From: Candidatus Poribacteria bacterium
GTDB lineage: Bacteria > Poribacteria > WGA-4E > WGA-3G
NCBI GenBank assembly: GCA_028820635.1
Contig: JAPPIG010000108.1
Location: forward strand, 113,733-177,732
Length of the DNA stretch: 64,000 nt
Direction: 5' to 3'
Position numbers and translations under genes: made by a program. Of this stretch, positions 11,301 through 46,160 are shown one piece after another. Within the stretch, counting starts at the first letter, position 1, and each line of letters begins with the position of its first letter. The notes under the pieces were generated by a model. That model did not search any database. It had not been told where the DNA came from and saw nothing but the letters and a program-made list of their open reading frames with translations.

Positions 11301-11849
11301 AAATATCCGCATTAGGCTGGTATGTGTTTCGGTAGGAAATAGAAGCGTAAGCAACCCACACGCTGCAATAACTAAAGTTGCTATACCGACAAATTTTCGC
11401 GTCCGACTATGATCAATCGTTGCTTTGAAATCAATACCTTTTATCCGTTGCGTCGTATCTTCAAGTAATCGCTGAAGCATGTGTGCTTCAACTGGGTCAT
11501 CTGATTCACGGTCACCGAATTGCACGGCACTCACAAGTCTATCCTCAAGATTAGGATGGCTTTCTTCAACATTGAGCGCAACATCTCGGAGGGTTAGTGA
11601 GGATCTCATCGGTTGAATAAGATATTTGATAAGTAGATATAGCGTCGCACCGATGATACCCACAAGCAGGGCAATACGAACAGCACTTGGCATCGGCATC
11701 AACCAATCAACGATTGATTCTCCAACCAGAATCGCTAAGAAACCTATCAGTACAATAGCAGCCCCTGTCCAGAAGAGGCTACGTTTCCACACACGCCGTG
11801 CATCTAAAATCCTTGTTTGTAATTCTGCATAATTTTCTCTGGTACTCAT
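8349..11849 (-). CDS. Large (1166 aa) membrane-anchored protein with a roughly 500-aa Q/E-rich coiled-coil, low-complexity C-terminal region. Possibly DUF4175-like; that family guess is unverified.
   Basis: Two N-terminal TM helices at about residues 25-75, and a third near 155-175. The central region is beta-rich and Ig-like. The C-terminal half is dominated by Q, E, L and A with heptad-like periodicity. It ends in a conserved-looking tail, PPEYRRLVDNYYESLAK. A single uninterrupted ORF immediately upstream of ppk2. Confidence 0.8.
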   Translation of the reverse strand: MSTRENYAELQTRILDARRVWKRSLFWTGAAIVLIGFLAILVGESIVDWLMPMPSAVRIALLVGIIGATLYLLIKYLIQPMRSSLTLRDVALNVEESHPNLEDRLVSAVQFGDRESDDPVEAHMLQRLLEDTTQRIKGIDFKATIDHSRTRKFVGIATLVIAACGLLTLLFPTETHTSLMRIFAPWEKTDPILTTKVNVTPGDARILSGKSLPIEVTVTGKDAEKVVLAYYDKNTPPTAENEGSKQEINMVQNPEDKRGFAYEIFNVNADMEYYVVANETTSERYTVEVFEMPRLEEISVSYTYPEYTNLKPVVQQGSGDIQAVVGTTAEVRLTANKAIQNATFTHQNSESETVVEEEGANEAVALKSSEMVIADGNILTKTLEVAEDGQYTVELFCIDGFNNEVPIEYTIKAMPDNAPVVVIKEPGRDVSATKLEEVKIVAGATDDYGIEQFNLMYRIGSGELKELALESTSEPVAEKTDGQYSKHLKTGAYTFYLEEFDVEPGEVISYYAHATDNNTLTGPGKASSEIYFIEVNPFNRRLEEGGECEIGTPNPFLTLIASQKQVIRETWKHTNAQPSTLTEEYNSAVKKTGEKQGEVKDKTQRVADELSFDMQEMQVDPEIMMNLEEAIDKMGEAKGNLDAIQPLVAIPPEQAALELLIKVNLEIPKILNQARQSEDPSLAENFELEMEELQSELEQDQEELERELQEQTQQMLEQAREMLAQQQNLNEQSQQMSKENQPSPSDMQQNSQQQGQLSQQAQQMSEQLSQMQGNAQGTQEQRLGQAGQAMQQASEQMQQASQGMQQQQPQMSAAKGGKAEEKLEQAIDQLERADAEFTDNALERASQQLQQLTAEQSGVQQQTQELRNKSQQSGMRPEDYRQASELANQQRQLQQDLESLQNDLGDLQQQLNQDNPEAAQNVGDASRRLNEEQTAEDMATAQRALQWRSLQSADLNQQEVIETLEEAQADLQQARANMAQTEEEQLEAALDQLQNFEEQMQDMDRELQGMEGQEQTEEQQQRQQQLTEQQQQLLERMQQAQQAMQNAQQGQQPGQEGQEGQQPGQEGQQGQGENENDLARGGAESYQEIKELWLGMLDAMQTPPGNRNRPFPKYELVIRDLQKLESAIEERLNMLQEMKQLAQVAKEDVPPEYRRLVDNYYESLAK

Positions 11850-13775: not shown

Positions 13776-15827
13776 TTATTTTACCTTAATAACAACAAGT
13801 GTCACATCATCCGCCTGCGGTTCTCCGTCTGCCCACGAAGTGCTTTCTCTAAAGATATGTTTGATAATTGTCTTTGGAGATTTATCCGCAATTTCTGCAA
13901 ATAACTCTTTTGTCTTTGGATAGTCTAACATCTCGTTTTCAGGATTCAACATTTCCGGTAAACCATCACTCATAAGCAGGAGCGTATCGCCAGATTTAAG
14001 TTCAAACGTTGCTTCTTGTCGCTCAGATCCAATAACGCCGCCTAAAGGCATTCCTTCAAGAAGTATCTCCTCTACCATGTTTTCGTCTGAACGATAGATA
14101 AGCGTTGGCGGCATTCCGGCGGATGCAAGCGTTAGTGTATTGTCATTGAACGTAGCAAGGGTCATCGCCATATATAGCCGTTTTAGGTTCATGCTCTTAA
14201 TACCTTGCGAAATCCGTTCAAGCGTTTCCAAGTTACCTGCTTCTGGTGTAGATGTTTTGAAAAGACTTTTGACAGCGGAAACAACAAGTCCTGCGTTCAT
14301 ACCGTGTCCTGTAGCATCTCCAATTGCGATGGTGAGTTGACCGTCGTCAGTGAGATTGAAATCATAATAGTCGCCACCAACCTCTGTTGCTGGACGCATC
14401 TCAAAATCCACATCAAGATTCGGAAGTTCAGGTGGACCTTGTGGCAGCATTGACATCTGGAGTTCACGCGCTTCTTCCAACTCCTCTGTTTTACGGGTGT
14501 TTTCAACTTCCAAAAGTTGTCGCTCAAGTTCCTCTGTTTCAAGTTTTCGTCTGGTTCGGGAGAAGTTGCGAGCAAGATAAATCGACATTGAAAATAGTGG
14601 TGCAAGAAATAAAATGATTATTCCCAATTCCCAGTTAATTTTGAATCCTGTTCGCGCCGCAATAAAACCGAATATGAATGGCAGGATTATAGGGGCGAGT
14701 GAGCCAAGCCCAAATATCCACGCGCCATCTTTTTTCTTAAAGATTGCAACAATAATGATTCTGACAATCTCTAAGAACGCCAAAATCGTAAATAGAAATA
14801 AGAGAAGACCCCCTAATCCTCCGCTGATATTAGACACATAGGAACCCGTAATATTAAACGTGTATTTATCAATATCAATTAGATTTACACAAAGGGTAAC
14901 AACCCATCCTGTAAGAAAGAACCAAGAGAGTTTGGGCAACTTTGGATAAAAGAGGGTATAGAGGAATAACTTTCCCGACACAAATATTAGGACATATACG
15001 CAGATAAGTAGCCGAATTAAAAACAGAATTTGTGTGTTGCTTGTCGTCCACAGCGTAAATTGGAACGTGAGAAAAATAAATGCTCCGATGCTCCCTGTTG
15101 ATATCGCGAAATAGAGGTTTTCCTTTGCGCGGGGATAAAAGAAAAACAGCAATAGATGCTGCAGCATGAGGAAAACAGTAATCGCTGTCCATACCATCTG
15201 TAAAGTGGTGCCGTGGCGAATAATGTCAACGCGCGATTTAATGCTTTGCTCCAGTGGGGCAACTACAAACCAAAACCCAAACGGAGATGAGAAGTTGGAA
15301 TACCGAACTGCAATCACATGGTCGGTTTGACCTGAAAACGAGATGACCTGCGGGTTACGCTCCCAATAAGGTTCCTCTTCCTCTTTCCGCGTTCCCACTT
15401 TACCAAAGGCATAAATCAACTCTCCGTCAAGATAGATTTCAGAAGCCCCTGCCTGATACATCACCTGGAGCGCCAGCGGCACATTCCAGAGCTGCCTATC
15501 AGGAACGGACACGTGTAGTCTGAACCAACCGATGCCCTCCCACTCGCTTTCGAATCCTCCATTTTGAAGCACGAGTGTATTAAGTGTGCCGCCGGATTCC
15601 CACTCGGTATCATCAAAAGTTGGATTTGCCCATTCTGGATTATCGCCCGGATGATACTTCCAAGGATAAAGTCCAGTTCCAGAATCTACTACGACTCCAG
15701 AATTCAGTAAGTCTGATGTCAGCACAAGTTTGTCAGGAACAGTTTCACTGTCTTGTGCTGGCACTTCGGAGATGGATACACTTATCATTAAAATGAGATA
15801 GGATATTAGAATTATCTTATGTTTCAT
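13776..15827 (-). CDS. 7TM-DISM receptor (7TMR-DISMED2 extracellular domain plus 7 TM helices) with a PP2C/SpoIIE-type Ser/Thr phosphatase output domain
   Basis: After the signal peptide come a roughly 200-aa extracellular domain, 7 TM helices, a coiled-coil linker, and a C-terminal PP2C domain with GDATGHG and the DG metal-binding motifs. Length is 683 aa. Confidence 0.8.
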   Translation of the reverse strand: MKHKIILISYLILMISVSISEVPAQDSETVPDKLVLTSDLLNSGVVVDSGTGLYPWKYHPGDNPEWANPTFDDTEWESGGTLNTLVLQNGGFESEWEGIGWFRLHVSVPDRQLWNVPLALQVMYQAGASEIYLDGELIYAFGKVGTRKEEEEPYWERNPQVISFSGQTDHVIAVRYSNFSSPFGFWFVVAPLEQSIKSRVDIIRHGTTLQMVWTAITVFLMLQHLLLFFFYPRAKENLYFAISTGSIGAFIFLTFQFTLWTTSNTQILFLIRLLICVYVLIFVSGKLFLYTLFYPKLPKLSWFFLTGWVVTLCVNLIDIDKYTFNITGSYVSNISGGLGGLLLFLFTILAFLEIVRIIIVAIFKKKDGAWIFGLGSLAPIILPFIFGFIAARTGFKINWELGIIILFLAPLFSMSIYLARNFSRTRRKLETEELERQLLEVENTRKTEELEEARELQMSMLPQGPPELPNLDVDFEMRPATEVGGDYYDFNLTDDGQLTIAIGDATGHGMNAGLVVSAVKSLFKTSTPEAGNLETLERISQGIKSMNLKRLYMAMTLATFNDNTLTLASAGMPPTLIYRSDENMVEEILLEGMPLGGVIGSERQEATFELKSGDTLLLMSDGLPEMLNPENEMLDYPKTKELFAEIADKSPKTIIKHIFRESTSWADGEPQADDVTLVVIKVK

Positions 15828-19926: not shown

Positions 19927-22194
19927 TTACCCGAAAAAATCTGGGTTCTCAGTAAATTTTCGGTATTCCTTACAGATGGCGTTAAGGTCGTTAATCGGGT
20001 CTTTACGTCCTGTTGCGTCATAACCGATACGTTCAGCGATTGCCATAAAGATTGGATGATTGGCATTTTTCCGAACCCATTCTCGGATGTCCTCTGTGTT
20101 CTTATCAGTCCATTCCTCTTTAACAGCGTCAATCTTTTCCTTGTATGCTGCTTTTATTTTACTTTCCCACTCTGGATCGGCGGCATTTCTGAATGCTGCG
20201 CGGTATTCTTTCTCTAACGTGTTCAGATCGCTTGTTTGTGCCTTAAGTTCTGCACGTGCGGTTTGCGGGTCGAACAATTCAAATTCTGTGGTAGGCGTAG
20301 ACTCAATTTCTGGGAAGAAAAAAGCACTGAGGTCTTGGACCTTTTTGGTTGGTACTTTCTCAAGTTTCTGATTTAAGGCATCAATATTGTCCAAAATTGA
20401 GATGAATTGCTGTCTATAGTTTTCTGTTACGTCAACCTGTGCTGGAGAACCTTTTGCAATAATAGTTTGTCGTTCATTTTCAAGTTCCTCAATCTTGGGT
20501 GTATAGATTGTTTTATTTTTACTCTCGATTTGATCAATTGCATCTTGATAGCGTTCAAATTCCTGTTCCGAAAACTTTTGGAGGAATAGGATAGACGTTT
20601 TCACACCCGCACCATAATGTGAGAAAGCAATTTGTGGGAGCGAAACAACAGCGAGGATTTTAAAGTGGCGTTCAATGTAATCACGAACATATTGCAGTGA
20701 GGAGTTGGTCAAAATTCCATCTGGTAGGATAATCGCGAGTTTGCCTGTTTTCCACTTGAGAAAATCAAAACAACGTTCAAGAAACAGAATTTCTGTTTTT
20801 TGAGATGTGCCATTTTTACCAAGTTCATAATCTCTAAGATACGGAAGTTCTGACTGTTTGATAACTGCACCGAAAGGTGGATTAGTAAGGATTATATCAA
20901 ACTGATCCTTTTCAAATTCGCTATGCTGGTTGTAGAGGATATCAAAACCGACAAGCGCGTCATTACTGATAACGTTGCTATGCCCATCGTCATGGATAAT
21001 CATATTCATCTTAGCAACGCGGGCAATTGAGTCGTTAACTTCTATTCCGAAGAGACGTTTTTCAGCAAAGTCGTGCCAGTAGAGAAAATGATCACGACTT
21101 TCAGTTTCTTCATCGTAGAACTCGGATGCCTGTTTTCGGATGTAATCCATGGCGTGCAACAGAAAACCACCTGAACCGCAAGCGGGATCGAGGATTCGTT
21201 CTTCATGATCAGGTTTAACCATATCCACCATAAACTCAACCACATTGCGTGGTGTGAAAAACTGCCCGATTTCGCCTTTAAAAAAGTTTCCTAAAAACCG
21301 CTCAAATGCAACGCCTTTCACATCCAAATCGGTTTGGCTGAGACTAATTCCTTGCAAATGATTGACAACAGAAAACAAGAGATTATCATCGATTTCAATA
21401 TTCTCTGTAAATACCTCAGGGTCTAATGTTTTTGCCTCTTGATAGAGGCTGCTAATTCGGTTCGCAACGGATTCCGGTTTTTCATGTGTTTTAATTTGAA
21501 AATCGTAGGGTTTACCTTTTCGTCTCGACTTTTTCTCATCTCTAATTTTTATAAAAAGAATTTTGGCGAGTTCATCAAACGCTTGTGTAGGTGCAAATTT
21601 CCCACCTTGCCAAAGCGTATCGTGGCATTTCTCAAGGACACGGATGAGTTCGCCTCTTTCAATGACAGACAGTTCTGATTGTGGGACACCCTTTAGATAT
21701 CGCCACTCTTGAACTTTGCCATATCTGACTGGTGGATCGGCAATGATGTTTTGTGAACGTTCGCCCGGTTCATGGTTTTTGACATCAAAAGGTCTACGCG
21801 TATTTCCCGCAACGACAACGGCAAAATATCCACCCAAAGAGTTGCAGTTGCCAAAAACCTGTTCAATTGCCTGATTGAATTCTGCGTCAGAAATACCATC
21901 TTTTTTGCATTCAACCACAATAAAAGGGTCTTTCTTATCATCGTCTCGGAAAACGACAATATCGGCAAGATCAGAAGGGGTTCGACGTGGAACAGTTACC
22001 TCTAAATCAATTCGGTTTGGAGGGTATTGATAATGCTCAATTAACTCAACGTAAAATTTTGCGCGGACCTTTTCTTCAGGGTCAGTAAATCTATAATTTT
22101 TGTCGGGGGCTACGTAATGGATTCTTTTTCCATCATTAAGGAATTTGATGTATCCTTTTTGTTCTCCGATTTGGAGAAAGTCAGTTTGGTTCAT
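19927..22194 (-). CDS. hsdM: Type I R-M system DNA methyltransferase subunit HsdM (N6-adenine MTase), 755 aa with N- and C-terminal extensions
   Basis: Has the NPPFG catalytic motif (IILTNPPFGAV) and an AdoMet motif (LDPACGSGGFL). It is followed directly by hsdS. Confidence 0.85.
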   Translation of the reverse strand: MNQTDFLQIGEQKGYIKFLNDGKRIHYVAPDKNYRFTDPEEKVRAKFYVELIEHYQYPPNRIDLEVTVPRRTPSDLADIVVFRDDDKKDPFIVVECKKDGISDAEFNQAIEQVFGNCNSLGGYFAVVVAGNTRRPFDVKNHEPGERSQNIIADPPVRYGKVQEWRYLKGVPQSELSVIERGELIRVLEKCHDTLWQGGKFAPTQAFDELAKILFIKIRDEKKSRRKGKPYDFQIKTHEKPESVANRISSLYQEAKTLDPEVFTENIEIDDNLLFSVVNHLQGISLSQTDLDVKGVAFERFLGNFFKGEIGQFFTPRNVVEFMVDMVKPDHEERILDPACGSGGFLLHAMDYIRKQASEFYDEETESRDHFLYWHDFAEKRLFGIEVNDSIARVAKMNMIIHDDGHSNVISNDALVGFDILYNQHSEFEKDQFDIILTNPPFGAVIKQSELPYLRDYELGKNGTSQKTEILFLERCFDFLKWKTGKLAIILPDGILTNSSLQYVRDYIERHFKILAVVSLPQIAFSHYGAGVKTSILFLQKFSEQEFERYQDAIDQIESKNKTIYTPKIEELENERQTIIAKGSPAQVDVTENYRQQFISILDNIDALNQKLEKVPTKKVQDLSAFFFPEIESTPTTEFELFDPQTARAELKAQTSDLNTLEKEYRAAFRNAADPEWESKIKAAYKEKIDAVKEEWTDKNTEDIREWVRKNANHPIFMAIAERIGYDATGRKDPINDLNAICKEYRKFTENPDFFG

Positions 22195-35244: not shown

Positions 35245-36087
35245 TCAATTAGAGTCTTCCGTTTTCAGATATTTTAACGGACTTTCGACAATATAATCCC
35301 CTGAGTCCTCAAGGAACTGCTGAACCAGAAAGACGTGTCCGCCACCAATAATTAACAATATCCGGTCCTCTTCAGATTCGGTGATACGCGTCAGATTGAC
35401 AAAAATTTTGAGATTACGGGCATACCAACGATGCACAAGCCAGTTCGCCCCGGGGTATTGATCGCTTAATCCAATCCGTGCACCGCGTAGGTATAACTGG
35501 TGGTCGGCGCGCCTGCCTTCAGGTTCGTTGCCGCGTATGTACATATCAATGAGTGATTCGTATTTCACGGGTACAATCCAGACTCTGCCATCTTCTTCCT
35601 CATGGAATTCCACGTCGCCATCAGGATAATAGTCCTCTATGCTTGACAACAAGTGCTCTTGATTGTGTTCCTTTGCGAATTTATCAGCATCGGTCAAATC
35701 CGAGTCAAAATCTTCTGGAAAAAATGGGTTATGCTTTGGCCAATAATCAACACCGTACAACTTCTGATGTTCCATCTGCTTAGCTAATCTAAACCCAATT
35801 TGGTCACCTTCTCCACGTTTGAGTTCGTAGGTGCCTTCCAGATAACCTTGGTAGTTCGCATTAATTTCAGACATAAACCTTTCATCTGCCTCAAGGGCAA
35901 TCTTAGTCGGACGAAACGGTTTAAGTAGTGTCACAAGTTGTTCTATTTCGCTTTGGCGTTTAGGCGCGAGCACATCGTCCATTTTGAAATTGTATGCATC
36001 CGCGCCAGGGTTCGCTAAGTGTCCACTTCCGAGAATCATGATTGTTGGTTTCATAGGGGTATTTTCTCCTTTTGATATTTCAAACAT
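35245..36087 (-). CDS. Hypothetical protein (280 aa); TraB/GumN-like fold is possible but unverified
   Basis: Intact ORF with conserved-looking ILGSGHLANPG and LIIGGGH blocks. Confidence 0.5.
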   Translation of the reverse strand: MFEISKGENTPMKPTIMILGSGHLANPGADAYNFKMDDVLAPKRQSEIEQLVTLLKPFRPTKIALEADERFMSEINANYQGYLEGTYELKRGEGDQIGFRLAKQMEHQKLYGVDYWPKHNPFFPEDFDSDLTDADKFAKEHNQEHLLSSIEDYYPDGDVEFHEEEDGRVWIVPVKYESLIDMYIRGNEPEGRRADHQLYLRGARIGLSDQYPGANWLVHRWYARNLKIFVNLTRITESEEDRILLIIGGGHVFLVQQFLEDSGDYIVESPLKYLKTEDSN

Positions 36088-36313
36088 TATAGCACGCTTG
36101 AAAAACCGATGCTATTGTAAAACTAATACCAATTCTATAAATTATTTTCTCTTTTGAAAAGAAATGTAAGAGGCGCAATGAATTGCGCGACTACAAAGGG
36201 TCTATTTCTTTAAGAGTAGTTATTTTTTAGGAATGGTATAACAGTAGGAAGCCATTCAGTTTTATGTTTATGAGTATAGAGGCTGCTATGTGCCCTGTTT
36301 AGAAACAACGATG

Positions 36314-36362
36314 CACTAAATCAACACCGAATGCGCGTATGGCATTCGGTGTTGATTTAGTG
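36314..36362. terminator. Perfect 21-bp stem / 7-nt loop hairpin (cactaaatcaacaccgaatgc-gcgtatg-gcattcggtgttgatttagtg). Candidate transcriptional terminator or REP downstream of the ECF cluster.
   Basis: The stem-loop was read directly from the sequence. It lies 86 bp past the stop of the lipoprotein gene at 36448 on the minus strand. It is related to the insert inside the IR-1 copy at 4964-5000. Confidence 0.4.
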
Positions 36363-36447
36363 CGATTACCTACATTTGAATTTTGTATTCAACTCACGTT
36401 ACACTTTAGACAAGTATCTTGAGCAAGACAACAGCTTAATTATAGGG

Positions 36448-36978
36448 TTACGACCCATTAGGTTTAGAACTGGAGACAGACTTTGATGTGCCATCGTATC
36501 GGCTAAATCTGCTTCGTACGTTTATTGTTGTGCCTACTTTAACAGGCAGAACTTCGTTATGATTTCCTCTATAGAAATTTCCGTCTCCGTTAAAGCGGAT
36601 AATTAGACGAATTGAATCGGAACTGTCTTCACTTGTGGAACCAACGTGAGTACAAATTAGACCGAGATCGATGGTAGGTTCTTCCACTTCTAACGGAAAT
36701 GTCTTGTTGAAGTTCTGGGTAACAGTATATTCCTCGCTGTAATTGTGAACGATGACTATAGCCCCCAAATTGTCTTTATGTTGACTGTAGTCAGTGGAAA
36801 TATCGAGGTCAAATGATGCGCCTTCGGGGACATGTTTAATCATAACGGTTACGCTTTCAGGTATATCAGTATGAGGGAACCTCATCTCGCGATCCCTTTC
36901 GCTGCAGCTGATAAGAAAAGGCAACGTAAACAGAGAAACAAAAACGGCAAGTTTTAAAGACTGATTCAATTTTTTCAT
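36448..36978 (-). CDS. Lipoprotein of unknown function (176 aa)
   Basis: Signal peptide with lipobox LISC. Confidence 0.55.
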   Translation of the reverse strand: MKKLNQSLKLAVFVSLFTLPFLISCSERDREMRFPHTDIPESVTVMIKHVPEGASFDLDISTDYSQHKDNLGAIVIVHNYSEEYTVTQNFNKTFPLEVEEPTIDLGLICTHVGSTSEDSSDSIRLIIRFNGDGNFYRGNHNEVLPVKVGTTINVRSRFSRYDGTSKSVSSSKPNGS

Positions 36979-37005
36979 TGGACTCTCCTTTCAATTTCAG
37001 TAAGT

Positions 37006-39513
37006 TTAAAACGTGCGGGACCATTTAAAATTGGCTTGATATCCTCGGTCCCTCTCAAGAGCTCTTGCGAAGTTCAACCTGAAGATACCGAATTGGAAAC
37101 CGATGCCAAGGTTAGCCTTTGGATAAATATTCTTTATATCTTCCAAATTATCCCATGCTTGTCCTATATCTACAAAAGGCACAACGAAAATCTTACTTGT
37201 TAAACTATGAACATACTCCAAATTGAAGAGAAACCCATGGTCGCCCGCAAATTCGTAGAGCGAGTATCCGCGTAAAGTTCCGGTGCCACCCAGCACAAAT
37301 TGGCGTTGATAAGGCAACCAATACTGAGTAGCAGCTAACCCGACTTTTAAACGGGTATCAAGCCAGTTTTCTCCAATGGGATGGTAGTTGCGGAGGTGTA
37401 TCACAAAACGCGCGAAATCATAATCTGAACCGATTTCAGAAGCAGAAAACTCACCAAGAAATGTGTTATACCACTCGTTATTGTTTCCTCGGTTTCCCAA
37501 GTCGTATCTAACTTTGGTGTTTTCCCGAGTATCAAAATCGTATTTTATAGAGATACTATGCATTCTGCCATCGTATATTAGAGAATTCGCTCTTGCAAGT
37601 GTGCTTACATCTAAATGATAATTTGAGGTGCCGATTCTTAAGTCAGAATGGCCGTGATTGAAAATGGTTTCATGTTCTTCCAATAGAAGCGATAGTCCCA
37701 GCGTATGCTTCAATGTCGGATTCTGCCATTGCAGTGCCATCACGCCTCCTTGTCTGGTATAGTAGTCATTGAAGTCTGCACCAGTGAATGCTCTCAAGAA
37801 TTGTTCGCTGCCGCTCAATAAGAGGTCTCTGTCCCTGACAGATGTTAGTCTATGAATTTGGGCACTATATGTCAGATTTGATTTCTCACCGAATATGACA
37901 CCGCCACCAAGCCGATAATTGAGAGTTTCTGTTTGAGTAGCAAAACTCATACTACCGAATACAAAAGGCATCGGTCCTAAGTGGGAACGTATTGGGACTG
38001 AGTCACCGTTTACATTTCGTCGAATCGTTTCGCCGGATCTTTCAAAAAAGAGTGGGTCGTAATACCATCTTTTGCCAAGTTCAAATCCGCCACCGAGTCT
38101 TAGTCCATCAACAGGATTTAAACCGCTGGTATTCAAGAGGCGAAAGAAATTCTTGTCAGTGAGAGAAACTTGGTTGCCTTGGGTAAAAACGCCTGCGGGA
38201 TTGTATCTGTCTTTTTCAAATGCGTCTAACATGCCTTGCATAAGTGACGATTTTGATGGTGGTAGAACCTGCATCCAATTGCCGTCGTTACTGTATAGTT
38301 TTTCAACACCAACATTTGACCACCAAGAATGCTCACCTGTGCGTTGTTGTTTTCTGTCAAAGTTAATACCCATCAGAATTGGCTCAGTGGTATCGGGATA
38401 ATCCAGTATCTGCCAAGGAATTTCCATCTCCACAACCCATCCGTCATCAACAATTTTTGATGCGACTTTCCACTGATCTGCCCATTCGGGATTCTTTGGA
38501 CGCGCTGTAGCAAAATGCACATATTTTTTTCCAAGTGGATTTGCCATAAACAAGGTACGATGTTCGGGTTTGCGTGTGTGAAATGGGTCAATGCTGAAGC
38601 AGACTGAATCTTCGTTTACGAAACGAACATGGTCTTTGGTTTGAAGTGCTACGATTTTTTGGGGTTGGGAATCGTAAAGATGCCACGCAACGTAGATTGA
38701 TTTGTCGGTATAAACCAGTTTGACTGTGGTCTGATCTTTGACCGGTTTTTCGGTGCTCACATGCGTAAATTTGTCTGCTTCAGGTGCTATTTTCCAGCTG
38801 TTATCATCAAGTTTTCCGTCAATTTTTGGCGGTTTTTCGATTTTAACCGCAAGCATTTCTTTTTCAACGGTGCCTCTATCTGGGTTTGGTTCTACCTTTA
38901 CCTTCAATTTGTCACCGAGATCAATATCTGTAGTTCCAAAATTGCTCAAATTTCCAAGCAAATCGCTAATCCGTTCTGTAGCGATTTTGCCGACAATGTT
39001 AACAAAGGTAACTTCCTTACGCTTTTCAGGCTTATCGGTAACCGCAATGGCAAAGATTCCGTAAGCTACATCTTCATCATATAGCAGACTTACTTCAACC
39101 ATTTCGTTCGCTTCCTTGATTTTGACGAAAACTTCCCACTCCTCTTTTCTAAGCTTATCCTGATAGTATTCAACAAACTTCGACCCGTCAGTGGTTATAG
39201 AACTATCATAAGTGCGGACATAGATACCATCAAGCATCTGGACCATCTCTTTCACCTCTGGTGACAAACTCATGGATTTGGTGACCAGATTGATAAGTTT
39301 GTCTGTCAAGTTGACTTCAACCTTTGCTTCGGGACTTCTCGGGTGGTCAAAGAGGATACGTCCTTTCTTCTTTGTTTTTTCAGACTGTTCTTTTTCCGCT
39401 AATACCTGATGGATCGGTAAAATCCAGAATGCTAAACAGAACGTTGTGAAGAACAGTGTAAGGTGTCTTTGCAGTTTCATTGTGTTATTCTCCTTTTTTA
39501 TATAATGCTTCAA
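37006..39513 (-). CDS. Outer-membrane beta-barrel protein (835 aa). It has an N-terminal DUF4252-like domain fused to a CBM9-like region and a DUF5916-type barrel.
   Basis: Signal peptide present. Residues about 80-200 align with the adjacent stand-alone 180-aa protein (VEMIEGVFIRSY…VSLLFADNPDVLHGIFIVL…TFVNIFGKI versus VQMLDGIYVRTY…VSLLYDEDVAYGIFAIAV…TFVNIVGKI). A DGKLDDNSWKIAPEADKF block is CBM9-like. The C-terminal half has alternating-hydrophobic beta-strands ending in …FKWSRTF, an aromatic terminus typical of OM barrels. Confidence 0.7.
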   Translation of the reverse strand: MKHYIKKENNTMKLQRHLTLFFTTFCLAFWILPIHQVLAEKEQSEKTKKKGRILFDHPRSPEAKVEVNLTDKLINLVTKSMSLSPEVKEMVQMLDGIYVRTYDSSITTDGSKFVEYYQDKLRKEEWEVFVKIKEANEMVEVSLLYDEDVAYGIFAIAVTDKPEKRKEVTFVNIVGKIATERISDLLGNLSNFGTTDIDLGDKLKVKVEPNPDRGTVEKEMLAVKIEKPPKIDGKLDDNSWKIAPEADKFTHVSTEKPVKDQTTVKLVYTDKSIYVAWHLYDSQPQKIVALQTKDHVRFVNEDSVCFSIDPFHTRKPEHRTLFMANPLGKKYVHFATARPKNPEWADQWKVASKIVDDGWVVEMEIPWQILDYPDTTEPILMGINFDRKQQRTGEHSWWSNVGVEKLYSNDGNWMQVLPPSKSSLMQGMLDAFEKDRYNPAGVFTQGNQVSLTDKNFFRLLNTSGLNPVDGLRLGGGFELGKRWYYDPLFFERSGETIRRNVNGDSVPIRSHLGPMPFVFGSMSFATQTETLNYRLGGGVIFGEKSNLTYSAQIHRLTSVRDRDLLLSGSEQFLRAFTGADFNDYYTRQGGVMALQWQNPTLKHTLGLSLLLEEHETIFNHGHSDLRIGTSNYHLDVSTLARANSLIYDGRMHSISIKYDFDTRENTKVRYDLGNRGNNNEWYNTFLGEFSASEIGSDYDFARFVIHLRNYHPIGENWLDTRLKVGLAATQYWLPYQRQFVLGGTGTLRGYSLYEFAGDHGFLFNLEYVHSLTSKIFVVPFVDIGQAWDNLEDIKNIYPKANLGIGFQFGIFRLNFARALERDRGYQANFKWSRTF

Positions 39514-39562
39514 TTAACAGGAAACTTTGCTTGTGCGTGAAATGTGTTTGCATCTTGGTTTT

Positions 39563-40105
39563 TTATTTTTCCCTACGGAATTTTATGTCAAACTTAAAGT
39601 CTTCCCAAAACTCTGGTTTCGATTCCTTAAGTTTTCCAAAGAGGATTCCGAGTTTCTGAAAATCTATCTTCCCAAAAATGTTCACAAAAGTAGTGTTATT
39701 CTCGTCAATCAAGACGATAAAGATTCCATGTAATACATCGGGGTTATCGGCAAAGAGCAGGCTGACGTGAAGTTGGTCCTTAACCTTGATAAACTTCTCC
39801 CACTTTTCCGTTTTGAGAATGTTCTGGTAATGGCGTGTAATTTCAATTAAGTTCCCGGCTTCTTTACTATAACTGCGGATGAAAACACCCTCTATCATCT
39901 CCACGTACTCCGCATGTTCCGGTAAATTTATCGTAGAATTGAAAAAGCGGTTGAAAAATGTCTTATCTAAGTTGATTTCTAAATTAAGTACTGAAGGGTT
40001 CGGTAAGTTCATCTCTATTTTGCCACGAATTGCGTCGGTTTCTGCTATGCCATTGCTAAAAAAGCAGAAAGCGAGTAGAAGGGTTATCAGGCTAAATCGT
40101 CTCAT
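39563..40105 (-). CDS. DUF4252-like secreted protein
   Basis: 180 aa with a signal peptide. It overlaps the anti-sigma gene by 4 nt (ATGA) and is homologous to the N-terminal domain of 37006..39513. Confidence 0.6.
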   Translation of the reverse strand: MRRFSLITLLLAFCFFSNGIAETDAIRGKIEMNLPNPSVLNLEINLDKTFFNRFFNSTINLPEHAEYVEMIEGVFIRSYSKEAGNLIEITRHYQNILKTEKWEKFIKVKDQLHVSLLFADNPDVLHGIFIVLIDENNTTFVNIFGKIDFQKLGILFGKLKESKPEFWEDFKFDIKFRREK

Positions 40106-40779
40106 TGTGTACTTCCTCCTGGAATTGATGAATTAGGTTTTATAGAAAAATTTGTATGTTTGGTTTTAGGTGGAATTGTCTCTGAATCCGGTTGATCACC
40201 AGTTAGGCGGTTTAGTATACCTAAGCTTTTATCGATTGCTGAAGATATTTTTGATGTTGATTTGAAAACACTGCGTGATGCTTCGTCAATCTTAAGAGAT
40301 GTAAAACTATCGTTTACTGCAAGACCTGTTTTATGGACTGCGTACTCCATCTTACGCATTGCGTAGTTGAAGTCGCTTTTTGCTTGTTCTATTTCAACAT
40401 GCCTTTGATGTTGATGGATACCAAATAATACTATTCCGACAAGACAGGTAAGGGCACTTACACGAAGAATTAGTTGGCGCGAGTTTTCCCAAGCGAATAC
40501 ATTGAAAAAACGATCCATCCAATTATCGTTGTGAGGATGCGTCTGAATATAAGCCGTAACCTCACTTAATATGTCGGGTGGGGACGTTGGTTTTGGCAGA
40601 TCGTCCAACACCACATCAATTGTTTGTGCCAAATTGAATTCGTGCTGACATGTGTTACATGTAGCGAGGTGAGATGTGATAGCAGATTCAATGGCGGTAT
40701 CCAATTCCCCCGCAATGTATTCTTCAATTTGCGCTTGGCAGTCTGTGCAAGTTATTTCGTGTGATAGATTTTGAGGCAT
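40102..40779 (-). CDS. Anti-sigma factor, zinc-finger (zf-HC2-like) single-pass membrane protein
   Basis: Has CTDCQ … HLATCNTCQ zinc-binding motifs and one TM segment (LTCLVGIVLFGI). It lies immediately downstream of the ECF sigma gene. Confidence 0.7.
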   Translation of the reverse strand: MPQNLSHEITCTDCQAQIEEYIAGELDTAIESAITSHLATCNTCQHEFNLAQTIDVVLDDLPKPTSPPDILSEVTAYIQTHPHNDNWMDRFFNVFAWENSRQLILRVSALTCLVGIVLFGIHQHQRHVEIEQAKSDFNYAMRKMEYAVHKTGLAVNDSFTSLKIDEASRSVFKSTSKISSAIDKSLGILNRLTGDQPDSETIPPKTKHTNFSIKPNSSIPGGSTQ

Positions 40780-40782
40780 CGG

Positions 40783-41358
40783 TTATGTCTCCAGTAGGCG
40801 GTTCAATATTTCCCGCAATTTCTTACGAGCACGAAATACGGTTGATTTGATGGTGTTTTCAGATTGTTTTAAGACCTGTGCAATTTCTTTATAACTCATC
40901 TCTTCTAATTCCCGCATAATTACGATTGATCGCATGGATGGCGGTAATTCGTCAATCGCTTGATGCACTAACTGCTTATGTTCTTGCTTAATGGCAGTCT
41001 CCTCTGGGGTTGGATTTGACTGATATGAATGTGTATGCAGTAGCATTTCAAGCGTTTCACCATCTTCTTCGGATAAATGCACCCGAAATTTTCGGCGTTT
41101 TAGTTGATTAAAACAGAGATTCTGTACACATTTCAGCAACCATGAGCGAACGGTTTCCTGCTTTAATTTCCTGTGATGTTGCCATGCCTTGATAAAGGTT
41201 TCTTGTGTCATATCTTTTGCGTCTTCACTGTTTTTGAGTAGATAGAAGGCATGCCGATAAACCTGATCTTGATGTTTGCGGACCAGTTCAAGGAATTCAT
41301 CTTCTGTCATGTGGCAACTCCGCGCGCTCGGGTTAACGCTACTACAAACAAGTTGCAA
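40783..41358 (-). CDS. ECF-family RNA polymerase sigma-70 factor
   Basis: Region 2 (…YRHAFYLLKNSEDAKDMTQETFIKAW) and region 4 (MSYKEIAQVL…SENTIKSTVFRARKKL) are present. The true start is probably the MTEDEF internal Met. Confidence 0.85.
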   Translation of the reverse strand: MQLVCSSVNPSARSCHMTEDEFLELVRKHQDQVYRHAFYLLKNSEDAKDMTQETFIKAWQHHRKLKQETVRSWLLKCVQNLCFNQLKRRKFRVHLSEEDGETLEMLLHTHSYQSNPTPEETAIKQEHKQLVHQAIDELPPSMRSIVIMRELEEMSYKEIAQVLKQSENTIKSTVFRARKKLREILNRLLET

Positions 41359-41538
41359 AAAAGTTGCATCTTTTTTTGTATTTCTTGAATAATTTGTAAA
41401 AATAATGTAAGAAGCGCAATGAATTGCGCGACTACAACGCTACAAGAAAAAACCTTAATGACAATTTTGAAGGTCTAAACCTACATAAACCGACATTAAG
41501 GTTATTGTGAAATATCTTTTACGATTTGAGTTGATTAG

Positions 41539-43008
41539 TTATAGCACAGCATTTTGCGCGGGATTGAGCAGTAGCGATGGCAAAATACCGATGAGCAAAA
41601 CGCCAATTGCAGCAAGGGCTAATCCGATGACTAAGGTTGAGGGGTATGGATTGAATTCCAACTCTTCTTCAGGTTCACGCATATACATTGTTACGACAAC
41701 GCGTAGATAATAGAAAGCTGAAATCGCAGTATTGACAGCACCAACGATGACAAGTGAGACAAGCCAAGTGTTAACTACATCTGGTTGAACAGCGGCTTGA
41801 ACAGCAGATTTGAAGATATAAAATTTTCCGACAAACCCTGCAGTTGGCGGAAAACCCGCAAGGGATAGAAGCATTAGCGTCATAAATATGCCGAGCAGAG
41901 GCTTACGGAAACCGAGTCCTGCGTAATCGGAAATCGTTAAACTTTCTCCATCAGCGGTTCTCGCTAAGATAACCGCACCGAAAGCACCGATATTCATAAC
42001 GCAGTAAACAAGGAGATAGAGCATTGCGCTTGATGTACCATCATCGTTTGCTGCAGCTAAACCTATTAACACATAACCTGCATGTGCAATACTTGAATAG
42101 GCGAGCATCCGTTTGATGTTTGTTTGCGCTATAGCAATAACATTACCAACTGTCATCGTCAACATCGCCAACAACACGATTACACCTGTCCATTCAGACT
42201 GTATATCTGGCAACGCTTCCATAAAAATCCTAATAAATGCTGCAAATCCAGCTGCTTTTGGTCCCGCAGAGATGAAGGCAGCGATTGTGGTAGGTGCGCC
42301 TTCGTAAACATCTGGTGCCCATTGGTGGAACGGAACGATAGCAACCTTAAACCCAAACCCAACGATAAGTAGGAATGTCCCTGCTAAGAGAAGTGGGGAT
42401 TGACTCTCAGTGGTGAGTTTCTCTGCAATCCCTGGAATACTTGTTGTTCCAGCAGCACCGTAAATTAAAGCGATTCCATAGAGGAAAAAGGCACTTGCAA
42501 ACGCACCAAGCAATAGATATTTCATTCCTGCTTCACTTGAAGCAGGGCTTTCACGGAAATAGCCTGCTAACACATACAACGACAACGACATTAGTTCTAA
42601 GCCGAGGAAAATGATAATCAACTCATTGCCAGCAGCCATTAACATCATGCCGAGCGTTGCAAGCAGGATAAGCAGATAGTACGGTCCCTGTTTTTTATCG
42701 CCTTTCCCTAAATAACTAATTGAGATGAGGGCAACCAAAATTGTTGAAACGAGGAAGATAATGTTGAAAAAGAGGGAGTAACTATCTATCCTGAACATGT
42801 CGTTGAACTGGGTTTGATCTGTCCCGGCTTGCAGCAGATTAATAGATGCCCATAAGGCAATCACTGCACCAACAATTGTCATCCATCCCAATGTCTTTTT
42901 TGAAATAGAGTCAATCATGTCAAAGACAAGGACAATAAGCAACGTTGAAACAATGACAAGTTGCGGCATTAACAATGACCAATTAATCTCAGGTATCTCA
43001 ACTGGCAT
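41539..43008 (-). CDS. nuoN: NADH-quinone oxidoreductase subunit N
   Basis: 489-aa polytopic membrane protein of the NuoN/ND2 family. It is the last gene of the nuo cluster. Confidence 0.85.
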   Translation of the reverse strand: MPVEIPEINWSLLMPQLVIVSTLLIVLVFDMIDSISKKTLGWMTIVGAVIALWASINLLQAGTDQTQFNDMFRIDSYSLFFNIIFLVSTILVALISISYLGKGDKKQGPYYLLILLATLGMMLMAAGNELIIIFLGLELMSLSLYVLAGYFRESPASSEAGMKYLLLGAFASAFFLYGIALIYGAAGTTSIPGIAEKLTTESQSPLLLAGTFLLIVGFGFKVAIVPFHQWAPDVYEGAPTTIAAFISAGPKAAGFAAFIRIFMEALPDIQSEWTGVIVLLAMLTMTVGNVIAIAQTNIKRMLAYSSIAHAGYVLIGLAAANDDGTSSAMLYLLVYCVMNIGAFGAVILARTADGESLTISDYAGLGFRKPLLGIFMTLMLLSLAGFPPTAGFVGKFYIFKSAVQAAVQPDVVNTWLVSLVIVGAVNTAISAFYYLRVVVTMYMREPEEELEFNPYPSTLVIGLALAAIGVLLIGILPSLLLNPAQNAVL

Positions 43009-43077: not shown

Positions 43078-44562
43078 CTAACGTAGGAACACGAATGTAA
43101 CGACCACAAAAAGCGGGAATAAAATAGCAACGGACCATAACATGTATCCAAAGAAACTCGGCATGCGGATACCGCTCTGTTCGGCAATTGATTTAACCAT
43201 AAAATTCGGTGCATTTCCGATATATGTATTTGCACCCATGAAAACTGCCCCGACAGATATTGCAGTTAGCAATCTGACAAACTCAAGGTGATGGGGCTCA
43301 GTCAATTGTCCTGACAAAATTTGTGGAACAACCGCCTCAGTAAGCTCTAATTTTCCAAGTGCGGTGTTGAAAAATGTTAAATAGGTTGGCGCATTATCTA
43401 AGAAACTGGACAAGATCCCAGTTATCCAGAAGTAGTGAGAGGGTTGCTGAATTGCCCCGATTAACCCGCTCAGTGCGCCTTTTGTACCGACACCGAGAAT
43501 TGTCAATGCCGGAATAATCGTCATAAAGATGCCAGCAAATACTTTTGCGACTTCTTCGATTGGTTCCCATGAGAACTCGTTTGATTGGCGTAATTCACCG
43601 CTAAAGGGCGTAAACTTGAGGGATAATAAACCCATCACGACAATCAACACGTCGCGTGCGATATTCTGCCAATATACATGAACACCGAGTACGTTGATAT
43701 CTCCCCACTTGAAAGAGCCACTCATTAAGACTGCCGCAACGATACCAAAGAGGAAAACGAGATTAAAAAGACCTTCAACACGAATCGGTTCGTTGACTCC
43801 ATCATCTGGGACGACACCACCTTCTCGTTTGAACATGAATGTGTCTATTATGAAAAAGAGAACGATTAAAATGACACTAATAAATACCATGTGTGGAAAG
43901 AGTGCGGTTGTTGTCCAGAAGAAAGGCACGCCGTGTAGAAATCCAAGAAAAAGTGGTGGATCGCCAAGAGGGGTTAAGGAACCACCGATATTGCTTACTA
44001 AAAAGATGAAGAAGACAATTAAATGCACCTTACTCTTTCGGTACGCATTTGCTTTAATCAACGGACGGATAAGGAGCATTGATGCGCCTGTTGTTCCTAT
44101 CCATGAGGCAATTACAGTGCCGATTAGCAATAACAGCGTGTTAACCATCGGTGTGCCGCGCAATGTTCCTCTGACGAGTATCCCGCCTGCAACCGTGAAC
44201 AAACCCCATAACAGTATGATGAACGGAATGTAGTCTATTAAGTAGATGTATAAAATATCGTGAAAAGCGTCACCTCTGAAAACGACAAGATATGGGATTG
44301 CGAATAATAACGCCCATGCCAATGACATTTTTCCACCATGGTGGACAAGAAAATGGGAATCTAACAGGAGTGGGAAAAGTGCGATTGAGAGGAGAATTCC
44401 TACAAAGGGAATAATGCTCCAGATAGGTAGTATGGAACCATCTACGCGAAAGTGTCCACCCTCGCCATGTGTCTCATCAGCAGCGAAGGTTTCCATTGAA
44501 ACTACTAAAGTAAGCCCCACGATGATGCATAATATAAGAAAAGAGGCAAGTTTTGACTTCAC
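43078..44562 (-). CDS. Ion-transporter-superfamily permease (ArsB/NhaD/CitMHS-like), embedded between nuoM and nuoN
   Basis: 494 aa with about 12 TM segments. The SLTPLGDPPLFLGF block resembles the ArsB/NhaD family. Its stop codon abuts the nuoM start at 44562. Confidence 0.5.
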   Translation of the reverse strand: MKSKLASFLILCIIVGLTLVVSMETFAADETHGEGGHFRVDGSILPIWSIIPFVGILLSIALFPLLLDSHFLVHHGGKMSLAWALLFAIPYLVVFRGDAFHDILYIYLIDYIPFIILLWGLFTVAGGILVRGTLRGTPMVNTLLLLIGTVIASWIGTTGASMLLIRPLIKANAYRKSKVHLIVFFIFLVSNIGGSLTPLGDPPLFLGFLHGVPFFWTTTALFPHMVFISVILIVLFFIIDTFMFKREGGVVPDDGVNEPIRVEGLFNLVFLFGIVAAVLMSGSFKWGDINVLGVHVYWQNIARDVLIVVMGLLSLKFTPFSGELRQSNEFSWEPIEEVAKVFAGIFMTIIPALTILGVGTKGALSGLIGAIQQPSHYFWITGILSSFLDNAPTYLTFFNTALGKLELTEAVVPQILSGQLTEPHHLEFVRLLTAISVGAVFMGANTYIGNAPNFMVKSIAEQSGIRMPSFFGYMLWSVAILFPLFVVVTFVFLR

Positions 44563-46160
44563 TATTTCGTCTGTGCCTCCTCTTCAATCAGTTGTAGGGT
44601 TGCGGTTTCGACTTTCAGAATAACAGGGTCTTGAGTTTCACCATCAATAATTACTTGTCCAACCTCTGGCGTATTGTCAGATTCATTTACTTTTACTTTT
44701 TCAGTAACCACACCCACTGATGCTTTCATCGGTTTCAGGAATGTATTCGGATGTACACCAATCCATACAATGAAAAGCAGTATCGGCAGTAAGACAACTA
44801 TTTCACGCGGTTTCAGGTCAGGCAAAGATGCGTTTGTGTTGTCTGGTGTACCAAACATGACCCGCTGGAACATCCATAGCATATAAACTGCTGCCAAGAT
44901 TACGCCTGTTGTTGCGAAGACCACGTACCATTTGGAGAATGCCCCGCCAACAAAACTGCCAAGCAATATCATAAATTCACCTACGAATCCGTTGAGTCCC
45001 GGCAGTCCGATGGATGACAGTGTTACAATCAAAAAGATGGTAGCGAAGATAGGCATTTTCTTTGCCAGTCCACCGAAGTCAACGATCATTCGGCTGTGCC
45101 GCCGTTCATAAATCATGCCGACCAAAAGGAACAGTGCGCCAGTGCTTAATCCGTGATTGATCATTTGCAAAACGCTTCCCTGAATACCTAAATGACTTTT
45201 TGAAAAAAGACCTAATACTACGAAACCGAGGTGACTGACACTGGAATATGCGACAAGTTTTTTCAGGTCCGGTTGTACCATTGCTACTAATGCCCCGTAA
45301 ATTATACCGATAATTGCAAGTGGCACTATCCAAGGTGTAGCGTCAGCTGCAGCTTGTGGGAAAAGCGGTAGGCAGAAGCGGACTATCCCGTACGTCCCCA
45401 TTTTAAGCAGCACCCCTGCCAGGATCACACTTCCGACTGTAGGTGCTTCAACGTGTGCATCTGGTAGCCATGTATGGAATGGGAAAAGAGGCACTTTAAT
45501 CGCAAAAGCAATGAAAAATGCAAGGAATAATAGATAGGAATGATCAAATGTGCCTTCTGTTGCTAATAGTGTTACGAGATCAAAGCTGTTACCGTTTTGG
45601 AAGTATAGTGCTAAAATGCCGACTAACATGAGCGCACTGCCTGCCATTGTGTAAAGTACGAACTTGATAGTGGCATAGATTCTACGTTCACCACCCCATA
45701 TTCCGATAAGGAAATACATCGGGATTAACATTGCCTCCCAGAACACAAAGAACAAGAATAGGTCTAAGGCACAGAAAACACCCAGCATTCCAGTTTCCAG
45801 CGCGAGGAGCGACATCATAAAACCGCTCAATCCTTTCTCAACCGAATTCCAAGCGGCGAGAATACATATTGGCGTTAGGAAAGTTGTAAGTAGCACTAAC
45901 CACAACGAAATACCGTCAATGCCGATGTGGTAACTTATACCTAAACCGGCAATCCACGGCAGTTTCTGGTAGAGTTGTGAGTCAGTTTGGAAACCATCAA
46001 TTCCTGCCTCAAATCCGGTGTAAAGCCCTATTGAGACAACGAATGTCAACAAACTGATGACGAGCGCGATGCCTTTAATAGCAGATGCGCCCATATTTCT
46101 GAGCAATGCTATCGCTATCACACCAAGCAGTGGTAAAAAAATAACTATTGAAAGTAGCAA
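44562..46160 (-). CDS. nuoM: NADH-quinone oxidoreductase subunit M
   Basis: 532-aa NuoM/ND4 family antiporter-like subunit (…WLPDAHVEAPT…). Confidence 0.9.
   Translation of the reverse strand: MLLSIVIFLPLLGVIAIALLRNMGASAIKGIALVISLLTFVVSIGLYTGFEAGIDGFQTDSQLYQKLPWIAGLGISYHIGIDGISLWLVLLTTFLTPICILAAWNSVEKGLSGFMMSLLALETGMLGVFCALDLFLFFVFWEAMLIPMYFLIGIWGGERRIYATIKFVLYTMAGSALMLVGILALYFQNGNSFDLVTLLATEGTFDHSYLLFLAFFIAFAIKVPLFPFHTWLPDAHVEAPTVGSVILAGVLLKMGTYGIVRFCLPLFPQAAADATPWIVPLAIIGIIYGALVAMVQPDLKKLVAYSSVSHLGFVVLGLFSKSHLGIQGSVLQMINHGLSTGALFLLVGMIYERRHSRMIVDFGGLAKKMPIFATIFLIVTLSSIGLPGLNGFVGEFMILLGSFVGGAFSKWYVVFATTGVILAAVYMLWMFQRVMFGTPDNTNASLPDLKPREIVVLLPILLFIVWIGVHPNTFLKPMKASVGVVTEKVKVNESDNTPEVGQVIIDGETQDPVILKVETATLQLIEEEAQTK

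Follow-up and report, generated by a model that had tools for sequence, protein, structure and literature searches.

Outer-membrane barrels and ECF sigma/anti-sigma pairs

DUF4252 proteins are common partners of extracytoplasmic function (ECF) sigma/anti-sigma pairs in Bacteroidota, including the stress-responsive operons of the periodontal pathogen Porphyromonas gingivalis. The passages of PMC10101095 and PMC11018363 that deal with these operons describe PG0214-0216 and PG0985-0987 as co-regulated sigma/anti-sigma/DUF4252 units, so that the view of DUF4252 as the usual small partner of an ECF pair, taken in an earlier note on the DNA studied here, is well founded. In the Dma proteins of Bacteroides the anti-sigma factor itself ends in an outer-membrane beta-barrel, which has 8 strands (PMC10927553). 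Within the Omp85 superfamily, the N-terminal domain of PlpD (type Vd) has been found experimentally to be periplasmic, according to the topology results of Hanson et al. (2024, PMC11116518). The subject of this report is a cluster of six co-oriented genes at positions 35245-41368 of a 64-kb stretch of DNA from Candidatus Poribacteria ("the window", whose positions are used as coordinates throughout). All six lie on the minus strand and encode, in order, an ECF sigma factor, an anti-sigma factor, a secreted DUF4252 protein, a fusion of a second DUF4252 domain to a CBM9-like domain and an outer-membrane barrel, a lipoprotein and a DUF5694 protein.

The cluster is an envelope module built on an ECF sigma factor and a ZAS anti-sigma factor. 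It is confined to Candidatus Poribacteria, a group of sponge symbionts, and has two DUF4252 paralogues as accessories. The family to which its fusion protein belongs is already present in the databases, is unstudied and is restricted to this one candidate phylum. A literature search returned no paper joining Poribacteria with Omp85 and none on the architectures described here, and in the portions of the literature retrieved that mention DUF4252 the name serves for gene annotation only. The earlier note had read the cluster as sigma, anti-sigma, DUF4252, DUF4252-CBM9-like-barrel fusion and lipoprotein. Its five open reading frames (ORFs) were all located where it had placed them on the minus strand, and Pfam and BLASTP comparisons, together with the lipobox LISC of the last protein, bear out that order. 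Profile scans were made with Pfam and NCBIfam at their curated cut-offs, and proteins were compared pairwise by BLASTP.

The sigma, anti-sigma and stand-alone DUF4252 genes

The first gene (40783..41310) encodes a sigma factor of 175 residues with Pfam Sigma70_r2 and r4_2 matches. It scores 107.4 bits against TIGR02937 (cut-off 42.9) and has only the sigma-2 and sigma-4 regions, which places it among the ECF (group IV) sigma factors. The automatic ORF begins at a TTG at 41358; the most likely start is the ATG at 41310, which has a GGAG Shine-Dalgarno sequence and a conserved 5' leader. The nearest named family is NCBIfam NF058625 (sigma_PG0214/GFO_1088), matched at 128.5 bits, marginally below the cut-off of 130.

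The second gene (40102..40779) encodes a single-pass anti-sigma factor of the ZAS type, 225 residues long. It matches zf-HC2 at 26.3 bits (cut-off 22.2) as well as NCBIfam anti-sigma models, and it carries the motif HLATCNTC (H37-x3-C41-x2-C44). The membrane is spanned by a hydrophobic helix at about residues 103-121, after which some 100 residues lie in the periplasm, the layout of class I ZAS proteins. Across 65 orthologues, periplasmic residues 122-190 are conserved as much as the cytoplasmic sigma-binding domain, and the last 30 residues are variable. The conservation of residues 122-190 suggests that they may form a constrained periplasmic interface.

The third gene (39563..40105) encodes the stand-alone secreted DUF4252 protein, here called type a, of 180 residues, which matches PF14060 at 34.7 bits (cut-off 23.9). 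Overlaps of 3-4 nucleotides had been claimed throughout the sigma/anti-sigma/DUF4252 unit. One of them is real, the start of the type a gene overlapping the stop of the anti-sigma gene in the sequence ATGA; the sigma and anti-sigma genes, on the other hand, are 3 nucleotides apart (TAA ccg ATG). The type a gene, which has AGGAGG upstream, is translationally coupled to the anti-sigma gene.

The AlphaFold2 (AF2) model of the type a protein has a predicted local distance difference test score (pLDDT) of 69, a predicted template modelling score (pTM) of 0.69 and an alpha/beta fold. Fold comparison gave weak matches only, among them a weak similarity to DcrB and to Eag-type chaperone-like proteins, and the DUF4252 fold also bears a weak, non-significant resemblance to Mog1/PsbP-like proteins, as seen in extracytoplasmic binding domains. 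No informative solved relative of DUF4252 emerged, and neither by sequence nor by fold is it related to RseB; a search of the PDB for sequence relatives of the type a protein, the lipoprotein and the DUF5694 protein found none. Forty-six DUF4252 sequences of types a and b share invariant G, W, G-F and N-G positions. A profile search with the alignment of both types, meant to reach the DUF4252 proteins of Bacteroidota and other architectures, returned only 84 relatives, all close or unnamed, of which the 3 with a named source are from Poribacteria, and is uninformative on other phyla.

Two further observations concern type a genes elsewhere. One variant, P0334 (289 residues; L020:4555-5424), ends in a beta-sandwich domain of about 100 residues with sub-threshold matches to Por_Secre_tail (23.4 bits) and FlgD_ig (22.1 bits; cut-off 27 for each), and so resembles the sorting domains of the type IX secretion system. 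At L005, L006, L012, L018 and L020, an extra 0.6-2.7 kb lies between the type a and fusion genes, where the usual spacing is about 50-90 nucleotides.

The DUF4252-CBM9-Omp85 fusion protein

The fourth gene (37006..39480) encodes the outer-membrane fusion protein. Its signal peptide is followed by DUF4252 (type b) and then a CBM9-like domain, and a linker joins these to an Omp85 barrel. The length of 835 residues first given for it is that of the automatic ORF, which starts at a TTG at 39513. The likely true start is M12 of that ORF (ATG 39480), which is invariant in 64 homologues and preceded by AAGGAG, and the protein would thus have 824 residues. Residue numbers below are those of the 835-residue ORF. 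The predicted Sec signal peptide (39397..39480; residues 12-39, MKLQRHLTLFFTTFCLAFWILPIHQVLA followed by EKE) would be cleaved after the nearly invariant A39 (...HQVLA, then EKE).

The type b domain (38938..39372; residues ~48-192) matches PF14060 over residues 66-185 at 36.3 bits (cut-off 23.9). The homology that had been noticed between the stand-alone DUF4252 protein and the N-terminus of the fusion holds firmly, with 32% identity over 148 residues (BLASTP E 1e-19), and since both copies also stand above the Pfam cut-off the similarity is beyond chance. The CBM9-like or DOMON-like domain (38320..38841; residues ~225-398) matches CBM9_1 (PF06452) over residues 231-394 at 30.8 bits (cut-off 23.4) and is modelled as a beta-sandwich, so that it belongs with the CBM9/DOMON-like folds. 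It is best described as a predicted CBM9 beta-sandwich with putative carbohydrate binding. Two of its histidines, H312 and H314, are invariant.

The barrel of about 16 strands (37009..38148; residues ~456-835) matches Omp85 (PF01103) over residues 612-820 at 35.8 bits (cut-off 24), as do all 40 family members that were scanned. The expectation of a barrel with an aromatic C-terminus is borne out by the profile, by the ~16-strand barrel of the AF2 model and by the final residues ...KWSRTF. Omp85 proteins such as BamA and FhaC carry an L6 loop motif, (V/I/L)RG(Y/F), and, on the facing strand, a motif (F/G)xDxG. In the fusion the L6 motif TLRGY (T746, L747, R748, G749, Y750) is invariant, as are F780 and D782, and G784 is nearly so (64 and 40 homologues). 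Against the PDB the fusion had only one marginal BamA-like hit, 9ccg at E 0.006; its CBM9 match, 1i82 at E 0.29, fell short of significance. DUF5916 had also been proposed as the identity of the barrel, which belongs instead to the Omp85 superfamily; PF19313 gave no match at E<=1 in the fusion, and it is carried by paralogues (P0110-P0120; L005:10370-12382).

Between the CBM9-like domain and the barrel lies a conserved linker (38149..38319; residues 399-455), in the place usually taken by POTRA domains. It contains the motifs WWSN, DGxW and PPxK and several invariant residues, and is modelled at low confidence (pLDDT <50). POTRA, POTRA_1 and POTRA_2 gave no match at E<=1 in the fusion and none at E<=0.1 among 40 members, and residues 399-455 of the AF2 model hold no beta-alpha-alpha-beta-beta unit. 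That model, built from 64 homologues, has a mean pLDDT of 62 and a pTM of 0.43, with 70-89 for the individual domains. It comprises an alpha/beta DUF4252 domain (65-192), the beta-sandwich (225-398), the poorly resolved stretch 399-455 and the barrel of about 16 strands to the C-terminus. By profile, 16-strand fold and the L6 and FxDxG motifs, the fusion is an Omp85 protein in every respect except the POTRA domain.

Distribution and operon variants in Poribacteria

With genomes taken at the species level, the fusion architecture is conserved in some 40 members of Candidatus Poribacteria. A word-indexed search gave more than 100 clusters at 90% identity with the same three Pfam domains (97-55% identity). 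Those with a named source are all from Candidatus Poribacteria and are labelled only "DUF4252 domain-containing protein" or "hypothetical protein". In a scan of one genome per species, 73 of 74 loci came from Poribacteria metagenome-assembled genomes (MAGs) or complete chromosomes. When 1.84 billion representatives at 50% identity were searched with a hidden Markov model, the full architecture was found as a single representative, P0016 (1512 bits), followed by fragments and then by groups of DUF4252-Omp85, CBM9-POTRA-Omp85 and CBM9-DUF5916 proteins, whose named members are all Poribacteria. An artefact, whether mis-assembly, run-through of two genes or chance similarity at the N-terminus, is refuted as the origin of the fusion, given an uninterrupted ORF in some 40 independent MAGs or complete chromosomes and more than 100 protein clusters, as well as the BLASTP and Pfam scores of its DUF4252 domain.

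The sister architectures include DUF4252-Omp85 proteins without CBM9 (P0124, P0125, P0132, P0134, P0135), some with a POTRA-like segment (IHEVRIQGN...) before the barrel, and CBM9-POTRA-Omp85 proteins of 1100-1200 residues. POTRA matches were found in the sister variants P0152, P0162 and P0202, and weakly in P0134. The CBM9-like domain of the fusion is about 60% identical to that of the Poribacteria CBM9-DUF5916 paralogues. At L078:3963-11892 and L076:3036-8146, PA14 proteins alternate with Omp85 proteins that bear a DUF4252-like N-terminus (764-832 residues), and a DUF4159 protein follows.

A scripted census of operons covered 65 modules (64 loci and the window). All 65 have the same order: sigma, anti-sigma, an optional type a DUF4252 gene and a type b DUF4252 gene. 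Type a is present in about 50 modules, usually with the ATGA overlap with the anti-sigma gene. In the 14 modules where it is missing, type b directly follows the anti-sigma gene and in most of them overlaps its stop. The partner of the type b domain is CBM9-Omp85 in 39 modules, including the window, CBM9 alone in 8 and DUF5694 in 14, and 2 modules have it unfused; fusions of type b to CBM9 plus Laminin_G_3 also exist (P0107). The soluble variants, in which type b is joined to CBM9 or to DUF5694, have a Sec signal peptide only. A divergent operon, with a sigma factor 52% identical, has three DUF4252 genes and then a DUF4252-Omp85 gene.

Downstream of the barrel gene of the window, after 27 nucleotides, is the gene of the 176-residue lipoprotein (36448..36978; lipobox LISC), for which neither the Pfam and NCBIfam scans nor the PDB gave a match. 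In about 20 loci the barrel gene is followed by a homologue of it, frequently after the same 27-nucleotide gap, and L001 has a duplicated copy; the lipoprotein may be a partner of the barrel. The DUF5694 gene (35245..36087; 280 residues, PF18950 157.9 bits) lies 360 nucleotides further downstream. Downstream of these operons it is common to find DUF5694 genes, either a lone copy or an array of as many as six, and also CBM9-DUF5916 genes. The DUF5694 gene of the window, one example of this, is probably an associated gene. DUF5694 proteins have an N-terminal GSGH and a C-terminal GGGH motif, which we take to recall TraB/TIKI-type proteins. Where DUF5694 is fused to type b (14 loci), tandem arrays of up to six paralogues follow; outside the window, DUF5694 was noted at L055 (6661-8049), L053 and L056-L071. 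Several loci, including L010:11338-13047 (~570 residues) and L078:269-3418 (1049 residues), encode ECF sigma domains with long C-terminal extensions, often a few genes away from DUF4252 operons; the 1049-residue protein has faint BNR/sortilin-like and DUF6242_C matches.

Topology of the DUF4252-CBM9 arm

The DUF4252b-CBM9 arm of the fusion would hang in the periplasm: the N-termini of Omp85 proteins lie there by default, the soluble type b variants carry Sec signal peptides alone, and there are sister proteins with POTRA domains. A periplasmic arm also fits PlpD. The order of an N-terminal functional domain and an Omp85 barrel is also that of type Vd proteins, and sister variants run from DUF4252 through a POTRA-like segment to the barrel. 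On such a pattern the barrel could move its own DUF4252-CBM9 passenger to the cell surface, in the manner of type V (Vd or two-partner) secretion, where the CBM9-like domain, a carbohydrate-binding fold, would bind glycans of the sponge host or of the environment; one type a variant moreover has a secretion-sorting-like tail. Self-export of this kind is nevertheless improbable. The fusion family has no POTRA, its soluble relatives (type b with CBM9 or DUF5694) have nothing beyond a Sec signal peptide, and its genetic partners, the anti-sigma tail and the type a protein, are periplasmic. In PlpD, the prototype of type Vd, the N-terminal domain stays on the periplasmic side, according to PMC11116518.

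The promoter-like element and its regulon

About 30 nucleotides upstream of the sigma start, at 41340..41368 on the minus strand, is a promoter-like element, TGCAACTTTTTTGCAACTTGTTTGTAGTA (TGCAAC-N16-TGTAGT). A bipartite layout with a -35 element containing AAC is typical of ECF promoters. The element occurs once in the window (0 expected by chance). It lies upstream of the orthologous sigma gene at nearly all related loci and is kept almost base for base among orthologues whose proteins share only 60-70% identity. In 80 sequences (79 loci and the window) it was found 80 times, in 68 of them, with all 80 occurrences on the strand of the operon and 68 before a sigma gene. The element can also be written TGCAAC-N13-RTTTGTAGT, and some loci have tandem duplicates (L025, L028, L070). 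The window holds no further copy that could serve as a second promoter before the barrel gene or the DUF5694 gene, where a scan for sigma-70-type promoters was at chance level, and the coding strand from 41358 to 36448 has no terminator-like site, the terminator scan remaining within chance. The operon thus appears to be transcribed from a single conserved promoter-like element.

The sigma genes preceded by the element include those of paralogous sigma-DUF5694 operons. The remaining copies precede LamG+DUF4252b-CBM9 and WD40 genes (L046, L047) and CBM9-DUF5916 genes (L054, L059, L061, L064, L068); the motif search placed copies, on the strand of the operon, at L046:2351-2379 and 7449-7477 and at L064:4897-4924 and 5644-5671. 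From this distribution we infer a probable autoregulated operon with a small envelope regulon, and the copies before paralogous operons and before genes that have no sigma gene suggest an ECF regulon that is shared or cross-regulated.

The same copies would be expected if the module had no feedback at all on its sigma factor, that is, if the DUF4252 proteins, the fusion, the lipoprotein and the DUF5694 protein were purely the output of the regulon. They would then be effectors of envelope stress or remodelling, and the Omp85 barrel would anchor periplasmic domains, the CBM9-like one binding glycan or cofactor and the DUF4252 one chaperone-like, for repair, assembly or trafficking. We rate this only slightly below the signalling reading given in the next section. 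It accords with the faint resemblance of the DUF4252 fold to DcrB and to Eag-type chaperone-like proteins, with the DUF4252-Omp85 paralogues that stand outside ZAS operons, with the motif in front of the sigma-less CBM9-DUF5916, LamG+DUF4252b-CBM9 and WD40 genes and of the sigma-DUF5694 operons, and with the statement, in the abstract of PMC11116518, that every Omp85 protein studied so far serves assembly or translocation. What it leaves less well explained is the ATGA coupling of DUF4252 to the anti-sigma gene and the fact that type b takes that slot when type a is missing. The sigma/anti-sigma/DUF4252 triad also recurs in another phylum, as far as the P. gingivalis accounts go, and such recurrence is the usual mark of a signalling accessory. 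Finally, the C-terminal partners of type b are functionally unrelated (a barrel, a lectin-like domain, DUF5694), and an adaptor role is easier to reconcile with them than one effector activity.

A possible role in sigma control

The reading that we tentatively prefer, while rating it somewhat short of an even chance, is that the periplasmic DUF4252b-CBM9 arm, tethered to the outer membrane by its barrel, serves the ECF/anti-sigma module. The arm would act as an outer-membrane-proximal accessory of the signalling module, and its type b domain would either pair with the free type a protein or touch the anti-sigma factor at its conserved periplasmic helices. Release of the sigma factor might then be tuned by the condition of the outer membrane or by a ligand of the CBM9-like domain, and the sigma factor would re-express the operon together with other envelope genes that have CBM9-like domains. 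Type b would be the constant adaptor, with the barrel, CBM9, Laminin_G and DUF5694 as interchangeable partner modules. The idea of a transenvelope signalling or cargo device, raised in the earlier note, is compatible with the conserved slot of type b, its swappable partners and the conserved periplasmic segment of the anti-sigma factor.

Several points weigh against sigma control by the arm. The contacts between DUF4252 and the anti-sigma factor, and between types a and b, are ones that the proteins may make and are proposed by inference. One would equally expect the outputs of a stress response to be part of an autoregulated operon. The element fronts CBM9-DUF5916 genes with no adjacent sigma gene, which shows that the output of this family of sigma factors includes envelope proteins with CBM9. 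Further DUF4252-Omp85 paralogues (L076, L078) adjoin PA14 proteins, without an adjacent ZAS anti-sigma gene, and show that a DUF4252-Omp85 fusion can also stand outside a ZAS operon. If the sorting-like tail of P0334 is real, it would point to export to the cell surface in its lineage. The full-length AF2 model of the fusion is moderate in quality, and its linker is unresolved.

A wider generalization, which we consider rather unlikely but consequential, is that DUF4252 works in the periplasm as a general-purpose adaptor, by which different sensor or partner modules (Omp85 barrel, CBM9/DOMON, Laminin_G, DUF5694) are connected to ZAS-type ECF anti-sigma factors. If it were true, the DUF4252 proteins of Bacteroidota would gain an assigned function, those of the stress-induced P. 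gingivalis operons among them, and TonB-dependent transducers and Dma would be joined by a third, previously undescribed way in which a barrel in the outer membrane is wired to an ECF sigma factor. Similarly, should the arm serve in signalling as tentatively preferred above, the module would be a new solution to communication from the outer membrane to the cytoplasm. The main value of the finding is as a clue to the function of DUF4252. The Poribacteria fusions are a natural "Rosetta stone": they place DUF4252 in the periplasm, link it again and again to Omp85 barrels and to CBM9-like and DUF5694 modules, and point to partners that can be tested. The organisms are uncultivated, and any practical use hinges on carrying the finding over to a model system.

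Other genes of the window

Upstream of the cluster, a CitMHS_2 transporter gene (43078-44562, minus strand; 585 bits) lies between two genes for subunits like the antiporters of complex I, an unusual insertion in a nuo operon, and shares its stop/start position with the gene upstream of it. The flanking ORFs (44562-46160 and 41539-43008), called nuoM and nuoN by position alone, are about 25% identical to each other. Elsewhere the window encodes, also on the minus strand, a fused restriction-modification protein of the HSDR_N/N6_Mtase/Eco57I type (19927-22194; 755 residues), a SpoIIE-type phosphatase (13776-15827; 683 residues) and a DUF4175 protein (8349-11849; 1166 residues).

Comparison with known systems

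The closest operons in gene order are PG0214-PG0218 and PG0985-PG0987 of Bacteroidota, which, as set out in the published passages on them, have the same succession of ECF sigma, anti-sigma and one or more DUF4252 genes and are co-regulated. The Poribacteria module differs from them in that its anti-sigma factor is of the zf-HC2 ZAS type and one of its DUF4252 domains is fused to a barrel or to other modules. RseA-RseB of the sigma-E system offers a further analogy, in that a small secreted protein is encoded right after the anti-sigma factor and plausibly binds its periplasmic domain. FecA-FecR-FecI would share the overall design if the arm does serve the anti-sigma factor, since there, too, a barrel with a periplasmic N-terminal domain serves an anti-sigma factor and an ECF sigma factor encoded alongside. 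However, no TonB-dependent receptor, STN or FecR match was found by Pfam in the five window proteins; the barrel is of the Omp85 type, and the putative transmitter would be DUF4252. With Dma the module shares an outer-membrane barrel tied to an ECF sigma/anti-sigma module as a proposed outer-membrane sensor. In contrast to Dma, its anti-sigma factor has 225 residues with a short periplasmic tail (~100 residues) and no barrel profile, and the barrel, of 16 Omp85 strands, is fused to an accessory DUF4252 domain.

As an Omp85 protein, the fusion resembles the non-canonical members of the superfamily (PlpD, WD40-Omp85 and "noNterm"; Heinz & Lithgow 2014, PMC4104836) in its ~16-strand barrel with L6 and FxDxG motifs, and it is like the PlpD-like ones in having an N-terminal functional domain other than POTRA that is likely to be periplasmic. 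The main text of that survey, which recognizes 10 subfamilies, contains neither DUF4252 nor CBM9/DOMON as a term. PlpD has one POTRA, whereas none was detected in the fusion, and the gene of the fusion lies inside an ECF sigma/anti-sigma operon. Type Vd proteins combine a patatin-like passenger, one POTRA and an Omp85 barrel; with no match to patatin or POTRA, the fusion falls outside that type. The CBM9_1-DUF5916 proteins have a closely related CBM9-like domain and are often encoded near these operons or behind the same promoter motif, but they have no DUF4252. The fusion is thus neither a TonB-dependent transducer nor a Dma, type Vd or DUF5916 protein. With it the Omp85 superfamily gains a POTRA-less subfamily with CBM9/DOMON and DUF4252 domains, in support of the recent view that the Omp85 scaffold has been reused beyond protein assembly.

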